From Propionibacterium freudenreichii subsp. freudenreichii (lineage in GTDB: Bacteria; Actinomycetota; Actinomycetes; Propionibacteriales; Propionibacteriaceae), in assembly GCF_000940845.1 (NCBI RefSeq), contig NZ_CP010341.1, forward strand, positions 2,617,167-2,649,166: a stretch of 32,000 bases of DNA. Direction: 5' to 3'. The first letter of the stretch is position 1, and every line of letters starts with the position of its first letter. Both the position numbers and the translations under genes were made by a program. Of the stretch, positions 24,155-30,689 are shown piece by piece. The notes beneath the pieces are model-generated. The model made no database searches. It had not been told where the DNA came from and saw only the letters and a list, made by a program, of their open reading frames with translations.

Positions 24155-25138
24155 CTATTTTGTGTGTCCATGTGGAGGAATCAAGAAATCCCAGGGATCT
24201 GCCTGATTTGAGGGGCGTGGGGCGGCCCCAGAACCGGCCGAAACGCCCTTCAACATCTCGACGATCCGCTGCAGGTCATCCTCGCCGGCGAAGTCGATGG
24301 TGATGCGACCCTTCTTGCGTCCCATGTTCACCTTCACCCGGGTGTCGAACCGGTCGGACAGGGACGTGGCGAGTTGCTCGGCGCGTGGGTCGTGTTCCTT
24401 CGGACGCGCGATCCGCTGCCTGGGCTTCTCGTCCCCACCCAGGGCAACGATCTCCTCGGTGGCCCGCACGGAGAGGCCCTCGGCCACGATGCGCTGCGCC
24501 AGGCGCTCCTGGGCCAGCGGATCATCCAGGGCGAGCAATGCCCGGGCGTGGCCCGCAGACAACACCGCGGCGGCAACACGGCGTTGAACGGTGACCGGCA
24601 ACTTGAGCAACCGGATGGTATTGGAGATGTGCGGACGCGACCGCTTGAGGCGTCGCGCAAGCTCGTCCTGGGTGATGCCGAAGTCACCCATCAACTGCTC
24701 GTAGGCGGCCGCCTCCTCCAGGGGATTCAGCTGGACGCGGTGCAAGTTCTCGAGCAACGCATCGGTGAGCATCGATTCGTCATCGGTGGCGCGGACGATC
24801 GCCGGAATCTGCGCGATGCCGGCCTCCTGGTGGGCCCGCAATCGCCGCTCGCCCATGATGAGTTCATAGTGCGTGGCGTCCAGCTTGCGCACGACGATGG
24901 GTTGCAGCAGGCCGACTTCCTTGATCGACTCCGTGAGCTCCTGCAGGTCGTCCTCATCGAACACCTGACGCGGCTGCTTAGGATTCGGGGTGATCTGCGC
25001 CACCGGCAGTTCCGCGTAATAGGAACCGTCAGCCATCTGATCAGATGCGGACTCGCGAGGTTCCTCTGCGGCCTGGATGTCGGTGCGCTGAAACAGTTCA
25101 CCCAGTCCGCGGCCAAGACCACCAGGACGTGCGCTCAT
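24155..25138 (-). CDS. parB: ParB/Spo0J chromosome partitioning protein
   Basis: [11 protein letters not shown]-terminal box, ParB box QPIVVR...[12 protein letters not shown], and an HTH ([25 protein letters not shown]). The ATG overlaps the parA stop (ATGA). Confidence 0.95.
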
Positions 25139-26832
25139 TCCTGCTCCTTCATTGCTCGTTGCGACAATTCCTGGGCCACCTTGCGGTAGGCGTTGGAGCC
25201 CACCGAGTTGGGGTCGTAGTTCAACACGCTCTGCCCGTAGCTGGGTGCCTCGCTGATCCGCACCGAGCGGGGGATCATCGTGTGCAGCGTCTCCTTCGGG
25301 AAATGTGCCATCACTTCCTCCGCCACCTGCGCCGAGAGGCGCGTCCTGGCGTCATACATGGTCACCAACACCGCCCACAGCTCCAGGTCGCTGTTCAACT
25401 GGCGCTTCACCAGCGAAATCGTGCGCATCAACTGCTGCACGCCTTCCAACGCGTAGTACTCCGACTGAATCGGAATGAGGATGTCACTTGCCGCGACGAG
25501 TGCATTCACGGTCAGCAGTCCCAGCGACGGCGGGCAGTCGAAGATGACGAAGTCGACGTCGTGGTCGGCCTCGTAGTCCCTGATCGCACGCGAAAGGCGC
25601 TGCTCGCGAGCCACCTTCGAGACGAGCTCCAGCTCCGCGCCTGCCAGGTCAATCGTTGCCGGAACAACCTTGAGGCCCTTCGCCTCGGGAGAGTCGACCA
25701 CCAGGTCCGCGACGGGAACCTCGTCGAGCAACAGCTCGTAGCTTCCCCTGACGCCCTCCTGGTGGGGAATGCCGAGCGCAGTGGACGCATTTCCCTGCGG
25801 GTCGACATCCACGACGAGCACATTGAGCCCGCCCTGGGCGAGTGCAACCGCCAGGTTCACCGACGTCGTGGTCTTTCCGACCCCGCCCTTCTGATTGGCA
25901 ATAACAATGCGCCGCGGTGCATCGAGGTGCGGCAGTGGAACGGTCTTCACTCGTGTTTCACGTGAAACATTCATCGTCTCCAACGAGAGCGGCTCCTCAT
26001 AGAGCGCCCGCTCCGGACGGTGCCTGGGTTCTTCGGGGGGACGCGGCGCAGGATGCCGGGCGGCCGGATTGCGTAGCGGTCGCGGAGCGGCGGGGTCATT
26101 GCTACCAGTCAAGGCCTCACCCTCCTCGGACGTTTCACGTGAAACATCCACCGCTGGATCCACGTCGTTGGTGAGTCCAACCGCGGAATCGTTCTGCTCG
26201 ACCCGGCCGCTCGCAGCTCGCGAGCCATCAGGCCGCGGGGAACTTCCAGCGCTCGAGTCCGAGTCATCGGCCATCGATGTTTCACGTGAAACATCGTGCG
26301 TCTCCTCGTCGGACGCCATTCCACTCCCCACTGCATCTCGCGAGCCCCTTGGCTCGATGTCTGAGTGATGGGCGCCCGCACTGCTCTGGCCATCACCCAC
26401 GGCGCTCAATGTTTCACGTGAAACAAGTGGGACGTCATTCCCTGGCACCACACCGATAGGCGCCGCCGGCTGGATCGACGGGGAGGAGTCCGCCGGCGTC
26501 TGGCCACTGTCTTTCCCGCTCATGCCAGCCTGCTCATCCGCGGATGTTTCACGTGAAACATTTGGCTCTCCCATGGAGCCGGGCCGGTGTGAGTCAGGGT
26601 CGCCATCACCGGCGTCGTCTTCGCCCGAAGCATCGTCATGGTCGTCACCGACGGGGCGCGTCGCACCCACTTCGAGGGTCTCGATGTCACGCCCATCAAT
26701 GGTGTGGCGGGGCACCTCGCGGTGCTCCTCCGCAGTGATCTCCAGTTCCGAGGGGTATCCCAGCGGACGCGTCGTCTTCCTGTGATCCTTCACCGGATAG
26801 CCCAGTGGTTCGCTCATCGCGATCATCTCCAT
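25135..26832 (-). CDS. parA: ParA/Soj chromosome partitioning ATPase with a long acidic N-terminal extension (start uncertain)
   Basis: The C-terminal about 265 aa are canonical ParA (deviant Walker [22 protein letters not shown]). The frame is open for 565 codons back to ATG 26832. An alternative start at ATG 25974 would give 279 aa. Confidence 0.8.
25954..25969. promoter_or_regulatory. parS site 1 (TGTTTCACGTGAAACA)
   Basis: Perfect 16-bp match to the canonical parS palindrome. It is read as VSRET in the parA frame. Confidence 0.85.
26131..26146. promoter_or_regulatory. parS site 2 (CGTTTCACGTGAAACA, 15/16)
   Basis: 15 of 16 positions match the parS palindrome. It is read as VSRET in the parA frame. 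Confidence 0.8.
26278..26293. promoter_or_regulatory. parS site 3 (TGTTTCACGTGAAACA)
   Basis: Perfect 16-bp parS palindrome, read as VSRET. Confidence 0.85.
26410..26425. promoter_or_regulatory. parS site 4 (TGTTTCACGTGAAACA)
   Basis: Perfect 16-bp parS palindrome, read as VSRET. Confidence 0.85.
26545..26560. promoter_or_regulatory. parS site 5 (TGTTTCACGTGAAACA)
   Basis: Perfect 16-bp parS palindrome, read as VSRET. Confidence 0.85.
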
Positions 26833-27535
26833 CCATACTGACGACTCCGACAGCTCACTCTACTGGCCCGCGGCGACTGAACCGCTGCACAACAGATCCA
26901 CACGACAACGGACCCGTCTCACAACAATCGGTCCGCTAGGAAATCTTTCCCTGAGAAGCCCTCTGCGCCACCGGTGAAGGACGAAATCGGCTCGCGCGCA
27001 CGACTTCGGAAAGGCCGGGGGAGGTACCCCACAAAGGGCACCGCCTGCGAAATGCTCTGGGGTGGCAGGCGTGGCCTCAGCGATCACTGCGCTCCCACGC
27101 TGGCCCAGCCCTCCACGCGCGAGCGAGCGCTTCCCCCGGACACTCTGGGGGACAGCGCCATCGCCGGTGCCAACTCTCGCTGGGGATCCACGGCGAAGCG
27201 GACCCAATGGAGATCGACCTTCTGCTCGTGGAGTCCTGGCGCCATACCGACCCGCCAGTAAAGGTGCCAGACCCCCAGCCAGCGCCACCCGCAGTGCGAG
27301 CGGGTCGAAGCGTGGATGCTCCCCGAGGAGACACCCCAACACGCCTCCGAAACCCCGAGGGCACCTGCTCTGCTGACCGAATGAACCGTCCTGGCCGTGG
27401 AGGCTCCGAGGCGCGCTCTCGCGAACCGTCCCCGGACCCGGCTGCTCCCTTGCAGCCGCTCAAGTGAGCGGCCCCGACCCCCCAGCAGCTCCCCAGAGGA
27501 CCACTCACGTGAGCATCGCCCCACCCCCGCATGCT

Positions 27536-27567
27536 CTCGCTTCGCTGCACGAGTGCAGCGAAGCGAG
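27536..27567. repeat. Perfect 15-bp inverted repeat in the rsmG-parA spacer
   Basis: CTCGCTTCGCTGCAC-ga-GTGCAGCGAAGCGAG. There is no adjacent U/T tract on either strand. Confidence 0.85.
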
Positions 27568-27794
27568 CCCCGGCAGTACCGCTGTGAACCACTCGCTCGA
27601 ACTGCCCGGCCCCAGGTGGTCCCTTGACGTCCCCCGCCAATCGCCCGGGCGGCTCCAACTCCGCTGACCGTGCGAACAGACCCCACCGCACGTCTTCGGC
27701 GCACTCATCGGAGCGTCTAGGTCGGGACTACTGAACCCTCGGGGCGCCCGCGCCACGCCGCACGATCATAGGAAGGATCCCGCCGCGGCACACA

Positions 27795-27813
27795 GGTGGA
27801 CCATGCGTCCACC
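27795..27813 (-). terminator. Stem-loop just 3' of rsmG
   Basis: GGTGGAC-catgc-GTCCACC, a 7-bp stem 17 nt downstream of the rsmG stop (27830-32). Confidence 0.35.
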
Positions 27814-27829
27814 CCCGGGTACGGCAGCC

Positions 27830-28615
27830 TCAGCCGGCCTGCACGCGCAGGATGTGCGCGACGTCCACCTCGGGGGTCGCCCGCACCTGCATCACCTGGG
27901 CGCTGAGCCCGTTGCGGGCAATGATGTCGGCGCTGTCGGCGAGTTCCTCGTCAATCGACTCACCCTTGAGTGCCAGCAGCTCGCCATCGGGCAGGAACAA
28001 CGGCATCGTCCAGCCCAACAGCTTCGGCAAGCGGGCAACGGCCCGGCAGGTGACCACGTCGAAGTGCTGCTTGAGGTCCTCAGCGCGTCCACGCTCCACG
28101 AGCACCTGGCCATCGAGGCCCAGCTCGTCAACGGCCTCCTTGAGGAAGTTGAACCGCCGCAGCAAGGGCTCCAGCAGCGTCACATTCAGGTCGGGACGTG
28201 CGATGGCGATCACCAGGCCGGGCAGGCCGGCACCACTACCCACGTCGAGCACGTCAACGCCCTCGCCGATCACCTCGAGCAGCGCGGCGCAGTTCATGAT
28301 GTGCCGCGACCAGATGCGCTCGGGCTCCCGGGGCCCCAACAGCCCCCATTCAACGCCTTGTCCAACCAATATGTCGACATATCCACTCATCGACTCGAAC
28401 TGGTCACCGAACAACGCCCGGGCACCCTGCGCAGCCTGCTGTTCGCGGCCCGCGTCGTCGTCACGCGCCTGCGCCACGCGGCGTTCCCGGGAAGCGTGCA
28501 CTTCGTGCGGCGCATCGTCCGAGGGCCCGCCCGTGCGCTCCACGCGACCATCATCGCGTCGAGCAGCACCGTGCCGGGCGTCATCCATCGGGTCGTCCAT
28601 CGGCGTGTCGCTCAC
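27830..28615 (-). CDS. rsmG: 16S rRNA (guanine(527)-N(7))-methyltransferase RsmG (GidB)
   Basis: SAM-binding VLDVGSGAGLPGLVIAI, RAVA motif, and the conserved position between jag and parA. It has an about 60-aa acidic N-terminal extension and a GTG start. Confidence 0.9.
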   Translation of the reverse strand: MSDTPMDDPMDDARHGAARRDDGRVERTGGPSDDAPHEVHASRERRVAQARDDDAGREQQAAQGARALFGDQFESMSGYVDILVGQGVEWGLLGPREPERIWSRHIMNCAALLEVIGEGVDVLDVGSGAGLPGLVIAIARPDLNVTLLEPLLRRFNFLKEAVDELGLDGQVLVERGRAEDLKQHFDVVTCRAVARLPKLLGWTMPLFLPDGELLALKGESIDEELADSADIIARNGLSAQVMQVRATPEVDVAHILRVQAG

Positions 28616-28622
28616 CGTCGGC

Positions 28623-29570
28623 TCACTTGGCGGGCTGCACGATCACGCGACGTCGGGGCTCCTCGCCCTCCGACTCGCTGAACAGCCCTGCCGCCTTCAC
28701 GGCGTCGTGCACGATCTTGCGCTCGAAGGGGTTCATCGGGGCAAGCCGCACGGGCTCGCCGGTCTCGTTCACGTCGTTGATCGCGTCCTGGGCCAGCAGC
28801 TGCAGCTCCTTGCGGCGCTTCTCGCGGTGACCGGCCACATCGAGCATGAGGCGGCTGCGGTGTCCGGTGGTGGTGAGCACGGCCAGCCGGCTCAGTTCCT
28901 GCAGGGCCTCGAGCACCTCGCCGTCGCGGCCGACCAGCACCTCGGAGTCGGTGACCACCGAGACATGGGCGCGGTCGCCCTCGCTGTAGGTGTCGATATC
29001 GCCGTCCAGGTCGGCGATGTCGAGCAGTTCCTCGAGGTAGTCGGCGGCGGCGTCGGCCTCCTCGATCAGGGAATCCTCGGCGCTAGACGACGAACGCTCG
29101 CGTGCCACGGGGCCGGCGGGCTTCTCCTCGCCCTCGGTGTCGTCCTCGTCCTCGTCGTCGCTGTCATCCTCGGCATCGTCATCGGCGTCTTCGTCGGCCG
29201 ACACCGGACCACCCTCGGAGATCTCGTCCTCGACGGCCTCCTCGTCCTCGTCCTCGAGCGCGGTGACCTTGCGCGCCACCGGCGAGTCATCGGGCTGCAC
29301 CGGTCCACCCTCGGCCACCTCATCGGCGGCGGCAGCCTGATCGGCCGCAACCTCGGAGTCGACCTGCTGGGCCACCGGCGACTCGTCGGGCTGAACGGGG
29401 CCGCCCTCGGACTCCTCGTCGGCAACCGCGTCCTCGATGGCCTCCTCGCTGGCGTCCACCTGCTCGTCGGGCGCAAGGGAGTAGTCCTCGGTCGCCGTCT
29501 GATCGGCAGCCGCCTCCTGCTCCGTGGCCGTCAGCTCGTCGTCGCGCTTGATGCCCTGCTCTTCACTCAT
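28623..29570 (-). CDS. jag: Jag/KhpB-type RNA-binding protein (KH + R3H domains)
   Basis: C-terminal R3H (LAPMNPFERKIVHDAVK) preceded by a KH-like region. It sits in the conserved position after yidC. AGGAG SD. The N-terminal half is acidic with EGGPVQPD(D/E)SPVA repeats. Confidence 0.85.
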   Translation of the reverse strand: MSEEQGIKRDDELTATEQEAAADQTATEDYSLAPDEQVDASEEAIEDAVADEESEGGPVQPDESPVAQQVDSEVAADQAAAADEVAEGGPVQPDDSPVARKVTALEDEDEEAVEDEISEGGPVSADEDADDDAEDDSDDEDEDDTEGEEKPAGPVARERSSSSAEDSLIEEADAAADYLEELLDIADLDGDIDTYSEGDRAHVSVVTDSEVLVGRDGEVLEALQELSRLAVLTTTGHRSRLMLDVAGHREKRRKELQLLAQDAINDVNETGEPVRLAPMNPFERKIVHDAVKAAGLFSESEGEEPRRRVIVQPAK

Positions 29571-29621
29571 GAAAGTCTCCTAGTCGAAACATCTGAAAGC
29601 TCAATGGGGAGCGCCAGGGCG

Positions 29622-30689
29622 CTATTTCTTCTTGCGGGTGGCCCGCGTCTGACGGCTGGGCTGGCGACGCACCACGGTCTGCCGGTCGCTGTCGTCGCGA
29701 CGCACGGTGGTGCGCTGGGTCGACTGGCGGCTCACCACGGTGCGACCATTCTCATCGGTCTTCGCCTGGGCGGTCTTGTTGCTGGCGCGCGGGTGCTTGC
29801 GTCCACGGTTCTGACGGGCACGCTCGATCTCGCGCGGGTCCTTGCCCTGCTCCTTCATCCGCTCTTCCCACTCGATGTAGGCAGGGGTGCCCGGCGTCGG
29901 GTAGTTGCGGATGATCACATACTGCTGGGCCATCGTCCAGATGTTGGTGGCAAGCCAGTAGAGCAGCACGCCGATGGGCATTGCCATGCCGCCGAACAGG
30001 TACATCAGCGGGAACATATACAGCATCATCTTCTGCTGCTGGGCCATCGGGCCGGTCTGCGCGGCCGGGGGCATATTGCGCTTGAGCATGTGCAGCTGCT
30101 GCACGAACATGAGGCCGGTCATCAGGATCGCCAGTGCGAGGGCGAAGCCCTGGGTGGCGCCGAAACCACCGGTCAGGGGCCAGAAGGTGCCCGACAGCTT
30201 GGCGCCGAACAGGTCGGCGTGGCTCAGTGAGGCGGTGATCTCGGGGCTGCGCTGCAGCCAGTAGCCGTGCACATTGCGGTCGGACGCCGCGGAGCTGAGC
30301 ACCCGGAACAGTGCCCAGAAGATCGGCAGCTGGATCAGCAACGGAAGGCACGACGAGGCGGGGTTGACGCCCTCCTCGTTGTAGAGCTTCATCGTCTCCT
30401 GGCCCAGCCGCTCACGGTCGGAGCCGTACTTCTTCTGCAGCTCCTCGACCTTCGGCTGGATGGACTGCATGGCGCGCGAGGAGTTCAGCTGCTTGGCATA
30501 CAGCGGCATCATGAGCAGCCGGATGAAACAGGTGAGCAACACGATGGCCAGGGTCCAGGTGAGGCCGGAGTCCGGGTTCATGAAGAACGAGAACAGCTTG
30601 TGGAAGAGCACGATGAGTCCGCTGACCGCCCAATAGAGCGGCTGCATGATGGCAGACCCGATCTTCCCCAGGGAGTCGCCAATACCCAT
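29622..30689 (-). CDS. yidC: Membrane protein insertase YidC
   Basis: YidC/Oxa1 core (MPLYAKQLNSSRAMQ..., CLPLLIQLPIFWALF) and a basic C-terminal tail. The start is taken at ATG 30689 (MGIGDSLGKI...); GTG 30722, directly after the yidD stop, is an alternative. Confidence 0.88.
   Translation of the reverse strand: MGIGDSLGKIGSAIMQPLYWAVSGLIVLFHKLFSFFMNPDSGLTWTLAIVLLTCFIRLLMMPLYAKQLNSSRAMQSIQPKVEELQKKYGSDRERLGQETMKLYNEEGVNPASSCLPLLIQLPIFWALFRVLSSAASDRNVHGYWLQRSPEITASLSHADLFGAKLSGTFWPLTGGFGATQGFALALAILMTGLMFVQQLHMLKRNMPPAAQTGPMAQQQKMMLYMFPLMYLFGGMAMPIGVLLYWLATNIWTMAQQYVIIRNYPTPGTPAYIEWEERMKEQGKDPREIERARQNRGRKHPRASNKTAQAKTDENGRTVVSRQSTQRTTVRRDDSDRQTVVRRQPSRQTRATRKKK

Follow-up and report, generated by a model that had tools for sequence, protein, structure and literature searches.

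In chromosomal partition systems of the ParABS (Soj/Spo0J) type, such as those of Streptomyces coelicolor, Corynebacterium glutamicum, and Bacillus subtilis, the parS sites are clustered near the origin. In plasmid systems of type Ia, ParA (P1 ParA or F SopA) carries an N-terminal domain that binds DNA and serves in autoregulation. A parS inside the spo0J gene of B. subtilis was reportedly found by Lin and Grossman in 1998. In Mycobacterium bovis BCG, a single intragenic parS is present in parA, and a modulation of parA expression by ParB has been suggested (Casart et al. 2008, PMC2346475). In Actinomycetota, ParA has an N-terminal extension of 20–25 aa, for which a role in binding DivIVA is known from M. 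smegmatis only (PMC9298525). No description of an intragenic parS array in a ParA extension was found in the literature searched, including text searches for VSRET and LGWP.

The DNA analyzed here (the window, 32,000 nt of Propionibacterium freudenreichii) contains the origin-proximal par locus of this species, in the order rpmH-rnpA-yidD-yidC-jag-rsmG-gap-parA-parB. The block rpmH-rnpA-yidD-yidC-jag-rsmG lies upstream of the par genes in the window, and dnaA is found directly beyond it in the syntenic loci of three other species, namely the sister species (L083) and two others (L084 and L085); the window's own sequence is called WIN in the comparisons. The minus-strand ORF 25135–26832 encodes 565 aa with ParA at its end, and the parA stop overlaps the parB start (ATGA). 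Residues 308–536 match AAA_31 (1.5e-57) and CbiA (1.2e-27), the motif KGGVGKT is the deviant Walker A of the Soj/ParA proteins, and the core has an AF2 pLDDT of ∼90. The preliminary description of this DNA rightly saw ParA at the end of the ORF; its position for the motif, near residue 300, was approximate, since in the 565-aa form the first residue of KGGVGKT is number 315. The neighboring protein is a canonical ParB: ParB_N, HTH_ParB, and ParB_C all exceed their cutoffs, GERRLRA is present, and the score against TIGR00180 is 194.6 bits (cutoff 58). The sequences make it likely that parA encodes a protein of ∼560 residues and that the five parS sites in its 5′ coding half form the centromere on which ParB would load. 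The features are as follows, from low to high coordinates.

24155–25138, minus strand: parB, with ParB_N and ParB_C; the product is expected to load at the five parS.
25135–25974, minus strand: ParA ATPase core with the deviant Walker A KGGVGKT; RefSeq places the start at ATG 25974.
25954–25969, no strand: parS-1, a perfect 16-mer with the reading N-V-S-R-E-T, located 26 residues ahead of the Walker A.
25975–26055, minus strand: conserved segment before the core (26 protein letters), located upstream of the start chosen by RefSeq.
26035–26040, minus strand: C6 homopolymer; C5 and C4 forms in some contigs split the long ORF.
26056–26649, minus strand: linker, acidic, disordered, and hypervariable, codons 57–254 of the 560-aa form; holds parS-2 to parS-5.
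26131–26146, no strand: parS-2, 15/16 with a perfect 14-bp core, VSRET phase.
26278–26293, no strand: parS-3, a perfect 16-mer, VSRET phase.
26410–26425, no strand: parS-4, a perfect 16-mer, VSRET phase.
26545–26560, no strand: parS-5, a perfect 16-mer, VSRET phase.
26650–26817, minus strand: conserved N-terminal module of ParA (MSEPLGYP...RPLGYPSE...EHREVPRHT...LEVGA), omega 0.10–0.21.
26701–26715, minus strand: decayed sixth parS, GTG CCC CGC CAC ACC (V-P-R-H-T).
26827–26862, minus strand: putative promoter and ribosome-binding site, with a −10-like TAGAGT at 26862–26857 and GGAG at 26830–26827, 9 nt before ATG 26817.

A search of the 32-kb window for TGTTTCACGTGAAACA with at most two mismatches returns exactly five matches (0.01 expected by chance, and none of 100 shuffles reaches five), and no further site appears in the window with up to three mismatches. 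The 14-bp core is perfect in all five, four of which are perfect 16-mers and one 15/16, and each conforms to the 16-bp palindrome of chromosomal ParABS (tGTTTCACGTGAAACa; the 16-mer word is also written GTTTCACGTGAAAC). The array spans 25954–26560, with spacings of 177, 147, 132, and 135 nt, each a multiple of three. By direct reading, frame 1 of the palindrome includes TGA; all five copies are read V-S-R-E-T in the minus-strand ORF. The preliminary description had given the same five positions, the 15/16 copy, the spacings, the common reading, and the frame with TGA, and all of these hold. The spurious MFHVKH-initiated ORFs that it mentioned do occur, on both strands of the window. The proximal site, parS-1, is conserved across Propionibacteriales and in many other Actinobacteria, and parS-5 aligns with the sole linker parS of the sister species. 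At the position of the decayed sixth site, L084 and L085 have a true parS (GTT TCA CGT GAA AC), and relatives from soil conserve GTT(C/T)CACGTGAAAC.

Upstream of the ATPase core, the long ORF has in-frame start candidates at ATG 26817 (the probable one), ATG 26826, and ATG 26832. The module contains LGYP...LGYP in P. freudenreichii and LGWP...IGWPxV[P/S]RETLxWP in the relatives, and no counterpart of it was found in Pfam, NCBIfam, the PDB, or the literature searched. The pre-core segment is the counterpart of the PPGPRRARFDEDE motif of the relatives. Disorder-promoting residues make up 74% of the extension. A type Ia ParA with a folded N-terminal DNA-binding domain was considered and rejected: residues 1–281 have no match in Pfam or NCBIfam, no HTH or other fold was detected there, and the AF2 pLDDT is <50 over residues 1–290. 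In the gap upstream of parA, only 26827–26862 is conserved with the sister species, and this is the sole basis for proposing TAGAGT and GGAG; no match to a sigma-70 consensus promoter was found upstream of parA, and a search for structured RNAs or riboswitches in the leader or gap (25000–28700) gave no Rfam match at E up to 1.

The extension stays free of stops in 5 of 20,000 mononucleotide shuffles, 2 of 5000 dinucleotide shuffles, and 63 of 20,000 shuffles preserving codon position (p ∼3e-4 to 3e-3), which bears out the earlier estimate, for ∼285 codons, of a chance far below 1%. In this stretch, the five remaining frames have 3–19 stops. The values of GC1/2/3 are 0.72/0.55/0.67 in the extension and 0.66/0.40/0.80 in the core; GC3 above GC2 in the extension had been noted correctly, but as a signal of codon bias it is weak. 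Within P. freudenreichii, the N-terminal ∼56–60 codons are under purifying selection (module omega 0.21), and between WIN and L083 the module differs by 9/10/34 at the three codon positions (omega 0.10). The 28 codons that lead up to ATG 25974 differ by 9/8/19, with 10 synonymous-only codon changes. The linker has an omega of 0.6–0.9, so that its amino acid sequence is almost unconstrained. Two alleles of P. freudenreichii differ at 15% of linker sites without indels: over 594 nt they show 87 substitutions and no indel, whereas the non-coding gap next to it, 1 kb long, has 58 substitutions together with 13 gap openings. Taken by itself, the absence of new stops among the 87 substitutions is not significant (27%–31% of simulated random sets of equal size are also stop-free).

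The frame of the extension is open in L083, L084, and L085, and the extensions of the relatives carry one to three parS. In all 54 distinct metagenomic loci, the module is in frame and the sequence is stop-free up to the Walker A, with linkers of 219–597 nt; this is the alignment of orthologues that had been proposed as a check. The module is found again in ∼49 of 85 long orthologues. When a profile of 34 residues of the module was searched against 1.84 billion cluster representatives, only 26 sequences matched, along with some repeat proteins that are unrelated; full-length ParAs are probably represented there by sequences without the module, and the sparse matches are then uninformative on its distribution. 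A scan of genome contigs with the ParA core returned no close relative; generic Walker A and VDxDPQGN patterns dominate it, and its loci served only as background from distant Actinobacteria.

The parS words are conserved in another manner. In 46–57 distinct lineages, their codons are GTT/(C|T)CA/CGT/GAA with zero synonymous variation, which places the constraint on the DNA. Variation is free in the flanking codons (Gly, Pro, Leu, Asp) and at the third position of the Thr codon. The codons GTT TCA CGT GAA ACA are rare in the window's own genes (joint probability 3e-6). Between alleles of P. freudenreichii, the 64 nt of parS have one to two differences and the 530 nt outside have 85–90 (p = 0.004 and 0.0003). 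At the lost site of the module (WIN and L083), drift has replaced the codons by GC-rich synonyms. The linker maintains its open frame and its parS words but no particular peptide sequence. Because the amino acids of the linker are nearly free to vary, its DNA can hold rigid words of 14–16 bp. A general preference of coding regions for the V phase could not be shown: clearly coding stretches of other genes, outside the 5′ region of parA, have four V against four F by a crude frame test that leaves most distal sites unclassifiable. By the same kind of test, most other actinobacterial parS in the compared loci are not assignable to a clearly coding frame. The count of sites all in V phase leans on two ancient orthologous sites, so that the counts are not independent events.

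The number of sites is polymorphic. Strains of P. freudenreichii have four or five parS, and the alleles differ by exactly one 147-nt in-frame unit, the one from parS-3 to parS-2, which the 4-parS allele lacks. Since the copies share one phase and lie a multiple of three apart, recombination between them would add or remove whole in-frame units. A recent tandem duplication of the units is ruled out by their dissimilar bodies: homology among the bodies is not significant (z at most 2.6), and only the parS words are common to the units. A second polymorphism concerns the C6 tract. The contigs with C5 or C4 all come from one SRA project and contain further homopolymer indels, and a sequencing error is possible; by far most contigs have C6, as do the complete genomes. 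A tract of C5 brings the extension ORF to a TGA, which forms an ATGA overlap with ATG 25974. If these forms are real, ParA would have to start in such contigs at ATG 25974, with its own GGAG, and the fusion would be dispensable.

Submitters annotate a ParA of 560–565 aa and RefSeq one of 279 aa starting at ATG 25974, the latter on >100 contigs through PGAP. A ParA of 279 aa as the sole product, with the upstream 840 nt an untranslated leader or a centromere region and the open frame a relic of an ancestral coding extension, is quite unlikely. The GGAG upstream of ATG 25974, to which the preliminary description had pointed for its alternative start, is present, yet the gap between the two is merely 3 nt. 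The omega of the linker is a value that non-coding DNA would also give, and the GC3 of the extension lies well below that of the core; both count against the long form, and a short ParA would also agree with the PGAP annotation, with the frameshift alleles at the C-run, and with the non-significant lack of stops within the species. However, the frameshifts are confined to the one SRA project, purifying selection acts on the module both inside P. freudenreichii and across species, the 28 codons preceding ATG 25974 have their excess of third-position changes along with the synonymous-only ones, the linker has no indel against the 13 gap openings of the neighboring non-coding gap, all other species and metagenomic loci keep the frame open, and none of L083, L084, and L085 has Met at the position of ATG 25974. 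The selection on the module, the conserved frame, and the indel-free linker indicate that the extension is most likely translated; the proposal of a translated extension with phase-locked parS is thereby supported, whereas ATG 25974, although chosen by RefSeq, is unsupported as the sole start. The supplement of an extracellular-vesicle proteome of P. freudenreichii has no ParA or ParB entry.

Two isoforms, with a long ParA begun at ATG 26817, a short one begun at the internal ATG 25974, and slippage at C6 possibly switching strains or cells between fused and split forms, are unlikely. The internal ATG with its GGAG is specific to P. freudenreichii, C6, C5, and C4 occur at one tract, and the ATGA overlap of the C5 form is a classic arrangement for translational coupling; but the Shine–Dalgarno spacing of 3 nt is poor, the variants of the C-run may be homopolymer errors, C6 prevails in the genomes and contigs, and the relatives have no conserved internal start. 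It is very improbable that VSRET is selected as a protein motif (for phosphorylation or binding, for example), with the match to parS secondary. V-P-R-x-T is indeed kept in WIN and L083 after decay of the parS word, and the flanking residues of the module are conserved as protein. Against this, the 14-bp core shows no synonymous change among the lineages despite its rare codons while the first base outside it varies, the perfect 16-bp palindromes reach beyond the five codons, and the five sites stand out as conserved within a linker whose omega is near 1.

In the preferred reading, with a long translated ParA, the protein would consist of an N-terminal module of ∼56 residues, an acidic disordered linker of ∼200 residues, a short pre-core motif, and the canonical ATPase. 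The five parS, four in the DNA coding for the linker and one 26 codons before the Walker A, are predicted to bind the ParB encoded immediately downstream and together would form the centromere. The reading frame would forbid the phase of parS with TGA; all five sites use the VSRET phase, and exchange between in-phase copies would produce the alleles with four and five sites. The module is probably a partner- or pole-binding motif, and ParB may affect the expression of parA; a coupling of ParB loading to parAB expression, if it operates here, is an idea already proposed for the single parS of M. bovis BCG (PMC2346475). A bolder combination, which we regard as doubtful, is that centromere and motor are deliberately co-encoded: ParB clamps at the five parS would throttle transcription of the 5′ part of parA, the occupancy of the centromere would set the output of long ParA and subsequently of ParB, and the LGYP/LGWP module would be a new partner or pole motif on a disordered tether with a length adjusted as parS-to-parS units are gained and lost.

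For P. freudenreichii, a cheese and industrial species, a conflict of annotation is thus resolved: the RefSeq ParA of 279 aa probably lacks ∼280 real residues, and many ParA entries of Propionibacteriales are likely truncated in a similar way. The locus offers a clean natural case of dual coding, in which a DNA-binding site remains invariant in a coding region and the cost is absorbed by a disordered linker. Such dual coding accounts for the phase-locking with no exotic mechanism needed. The module gives a handle on the coupling of ParA to the cell-cycle machinery in bacteria that lack the partners known from model organisms.

The par locus of P. freudenreichii shares with chromosomal ParABS the 16-bp consensus, a canonical ParB, a ParA with deviant Walker A, and the adjoining rpmH/dnaA origin region; it differs in that its five parS (in 32 kb) all fall within the 5′ half of parA, 132–177 bp apart and in one codon phase. 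Like type Ia ParA, its ParA has a long N-terminal addition, and cis sites occur near the 5′ end of the par operon, but those sites are predicted ParB sites and not ParA operators. As in M. smegmatis, residues precede the ATPase, and the proximal VSRET falls in that zone; instead of 20–25 aa, however, there are ∼281 residues with their own LGYP/LGWP module and a hypervariable disordered linker. As with parA of BCG and spo0J of B. subtilis, a par gene contains a ParB site within its coding sequence. Unlike those single parS, P. freudenreichii has an array of five sites with polymorphism of copy number and a long disordered extension, and the in-frame embedding is conserved across the whole order, under a dual constraint on DNA and protein.

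The 16-bp parS word TGTTTCACGTGAAACA is matched five times in the window, with 0.01 matches expected by chance, and its 14-bp core is perfect in 5/5 sites; no further parS is present in the 32 kb at up to three mismatches. All five copies lie within the minus-strand ORF 25135..26832 (565 aa), whose end is the ParA ATPase, and each is read V-S-R-E-T. Pattern matching and ORF translation thus agree with the preliminary description on the sites, on their spacings (177, 147, 132, and 135 nt) and on the common reading. The elements are as follows:

25954, parS-1
26131, parS-2 (15/16)
26278, parS-3
26410, parS-4
26545, parS-5
26650..26817, minus strand, N-terminal module of ParA
26056..26649, minus strand, linker
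25975..26055, minus strand, pre-core segment
25135..25974, minus strand, ATPase core

On the minus strand, the gene order is rpmH, rnpA, yidD, yidC, jag, rsmG, a gap of ~1 kb, parA, and parB, and, in syntenic loci, dnaA lies directly past the rpmH-rsmG block, which identifies the origin-proximal par locus. The parB start overlaps the parA stop, and domain profile searches return a canonical ParB (ParB_N, HTH_ParB, ParB_C). The ORF-poor rsmG-parA gap (26833-27829; 39% G on the minus strand) has a flat GC over codon positions in all gap ORFs, is without match in an Rfam search, and, against sister species, is without homology save for the last ~37 nt. In related species, that gap is only 100-400 nt; in two P. 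freudenreichii loci (L169 and L171), an IS transposase is found just upstream of the gap region.

The 286 codons upstream of ATG 25974 are stop-free, a run equalled in 5/20000 mononucleotide, 2/5000 dinucleotide, and 63/20000 codon-position-preserving shuffles, as improbable as had been estimated; the remaining five frames contain 3-19 stops each over the same stretch. GC at positions 1/2/3 is 0.72/0.55/0.67 in the extension vs. 0.66/0.40/0.80 in the core, so that GC3 does exceed GC2 in the extension, as was noted from partial translation. Very long antisense ORFs also occur (27852-30230 on the plus strand and similar, e.g., 792 aa opposite rsmG, jag, and yidC). These are ordinary high-GC artefacts, and ORF length alone therefore says little in the P. 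freudenreichii genome.

Three further species have the same synteny, with ParA core identities of 92% (L083), 85% (L084), and 75% (L085, P. acidifaciens). All three have a parA frame that stays open far upstream, and these upstream frames share with that of the window the N-terminal module MSEPLGYP...RPLGYPSE...EHREV.... Compared with L083, the window has 9/10/34 differences at positions 1/2/3 of the 60 module codons (omega 0.10) and 23/9/124 in the ATPase core (omega 0.04). A purine-rich RBS and a start codon shortly precede PLG(Y/W)P in all compared species. About 49 of the 85 ParA orthologues with >60 residues before Walker A start with LGWP...(I/V)GWPxV(P/S)RETLxWP, and many also contain PPGPRRARFDEDE upstream of the proximal VSRET. 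A metagenome scan with the LGWP module gave 80 loci. Walker A is also present in 54 distinct ones, and in 54/54 the module and Walker A share a frame uninterrupted by stops; the linkers span 219-597 nt, always a multiple of 3. Within P. freudenreichii, a diverged allele (L168-L173; 93-95% identity across the region) matches the window in its five sites, their spacings, and the open frame. Its linker (codons 57-254) differs at 87/594 nt with 0 indels, the adjacent non-coding gap by 58 substitutions and 13 gap openings; the absence of new stops within the species is not statistically significant. From the module constraint, the open frames in relatives, and the indel-free linker, we conclude that the extension should be regarded as part of ParA, and comparative sequence evidence upholds the main reading of the preliminary description, a coding extension with phase-locked parS. 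Seven loci (L004, L008, L010, L016, L018, L053, L029) of Intrasporangiaceae, Streptosporangium, Actinopolymorphaceae, Kineococcus, and unclassified Actinomycetota MAGs likewise have two LGWP (or LGW-like) motifs ahead of ParA, so that the module is wider than Propionibacteriales.

The public annotations hold the same two readings as the preliminary description. Submitters give parA products of 560, 563, or 565 aa (511 or 514 aa for the shorter allele), and AJQ92051.1 ("Chromosome partitioning protein", Propionibacterium freudenreichii) matches the window's 560-aa product, read from ATG 26817, without a single difference. RefSeq/PGAP gives 279 aa from ATG 25974 in >100 contigs, which is the alternative start proposed earlier. 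That alternative is disfavored: the three other species have Leu, Thr, or Asp/Gly at the position of ATG 25974, and the sequence upstream is constrained, the 28 codons directly before it differing 9/8/19 times from L083, with synonymous-only change in 10 codons. These comparisons indicate that ParA is probably truncated in the RefSeq annotation. P. acidifaciens annotations are split likewise (262 aa vs. 427 aa).

Constraint differs by segment. Between the window and L168-L173, the module has an omega of 0.21, the pre-core segment two changes, both synonymous, and the core 5-17 changes, synonymous with one exception; all three are constrained, unlike the linker, where substitutions are even over codon positions (30/25/32; omega 0.6-0.9). 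AF2 (75-sequence alignment) predicts residues 1-290 with pLDDT <50 and the core with ~90. The extension contains 58 Asp+Glu vs. 26 Lys+Arg and 74% disorder-promoting residues, and has no match in a Pfam, NCBIfam, or PDB profile search. The linker (26056-26649) diverges by ~15% between these alleles; the non-coding gap next to it shows about half that divergence (7.4%), and dS in the ParA core is far lower (0.02-0.08). The excess may stem from mosaic recombination, from diversifying selection, or from hypermutation confined to the surroundings of the predicted ParB sites.

Within the linker, the parS words are conserved islands, with 1-2 differences in 64 nt vs. 85-90 in the other 530 nt (Fisher p = 0.004 and 0.0003). 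Across 46-57 distinct lineages, the V-(P/S)-R-E-T of the module is always GTT-(C/T)CA-CGT-GAA-ACN, and the 14-bp core is free of synonymous change. Immediately beyond it, the Thr codon varies at its third base (ACG/ACA/ACC/ACT), and there is free variation in the codons for the flanking Gly, Pro, Leu, and Asp. Such A/T-ending codons are rare in window genes (frequencies 0.13, 0.08, 0.17, 0.18, and 0.01; joint probability 3e-6). Where the module site is lost, in the window (GTG CCC CGC CAC ACC) and L083 (GTT CCT CGA ATG ACG), the codons have drifted; L084 and L085 retain GTT TCA CGT GAA AC at that position. The invariant core, the rare codons, and the drift after site loss argue that the word is kept by selection on DNA, and the module around it is kept by selection on protein. 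Selection at the DNA level is consistent with a predicted ParB site. Most soil relatives (L086-L165) have an asymmetric GTTCCACGTGAAAC, read VPRET and without synonymous variation, which may be a parS that functions despite one mismatch, or may differ in its affinity for ParB.

With the extension translated, the TGA-containing phase of parS is excluded, and the chance of five sites in one of the two remaining phases is 1/16, unremarkable taken alone. In the 54 metagenome loci, 75/75 parS-like sites are in the V phase (V-S-R-E-T) and 75/75 within the extension, as is every upstream parS of L083-L085, and several other actinobacterial lineages have additional in-frame V-phase sites. However, such family counts derive mostly from two ancient orthologous sites and are non-independent. 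Where other genes are clearly coding, 4 sites are in the V and 4 in the F phase (F-H-V-K) and, with F-phase sites elsewhere, a universal V-phase preference is not demonstrated. In Microbacteriaceae (L005, L011, L033), the ParA-proximal parS is in the F phase, and ParA could even start within ATGTTTCACGTGAAAC (MFHVKQ...), in which case the MFHVK reading taken as spurious in the preliminary description may be real in that family.

One effect of the shared phase is seen directly in a 511-aa allele, present in L081, L082, and many strains, from which the 147 nt that run from parS-3 to parS-2 are missing as one exact unit; between sites, the units are dissimilar to each other. Recombination between in-phase copies 3n apart changes the number of sites and, because of the shared phase and spacing, leaves parA unbroken. 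Over 24155-26148, the window and L081 have 0 differences in the parA core and 29, mostly synonymous, in parB, with 99.95% identity upstream of the array, a pattern suggestive of recombination with breakpoints where parA meets parB and at the parS array. At 26035-26040, where the window has a C6 run within the extension, several Logan contigs of one SRA project (SRR284098xx) have C5 or C4, which splits the ORF; with C5, the stop of the upstream ORF and ATG 25974 overlap as ATGA. Since these contigs contain other homopolymer indels, the variants may be sequencing errors; if real, the fusion is dispensable or two isoforms exist.

A single parS inside the parA gene of M. bovis BCG is on record from Casart et al. 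2008 (PMC2346475), who proposed that ParB could modulate parA expression there. The N-terminal extensions described for actinobacterial ParA are of 20-25 aa only, with DivIVA binding in M. smegmatis (PMC9298525). Our literature search found no account of a long disordered ParA extension, of the LGYP/LGWP module, of in-frame parS embedding under dual constraint, or of a multi-copy intragenic parS array. In every character assessable from sequence, the P. freudenreichii system agrees with chromosomal ParABS; its ParA is unlike plasmid type Ia ParA, since the N-terminus is without a folded domain. The locus thus reads as a predicted standard ParABS centromere, with the sites written in one codon phase into a putative disordered N-terminal tether of ParA. 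Having four or five sites, P. freudenreichii is the extreme case of an architecture common to Propionibacteriales and seen, by sequence comparison, in parts of other actinobacterial lineages.
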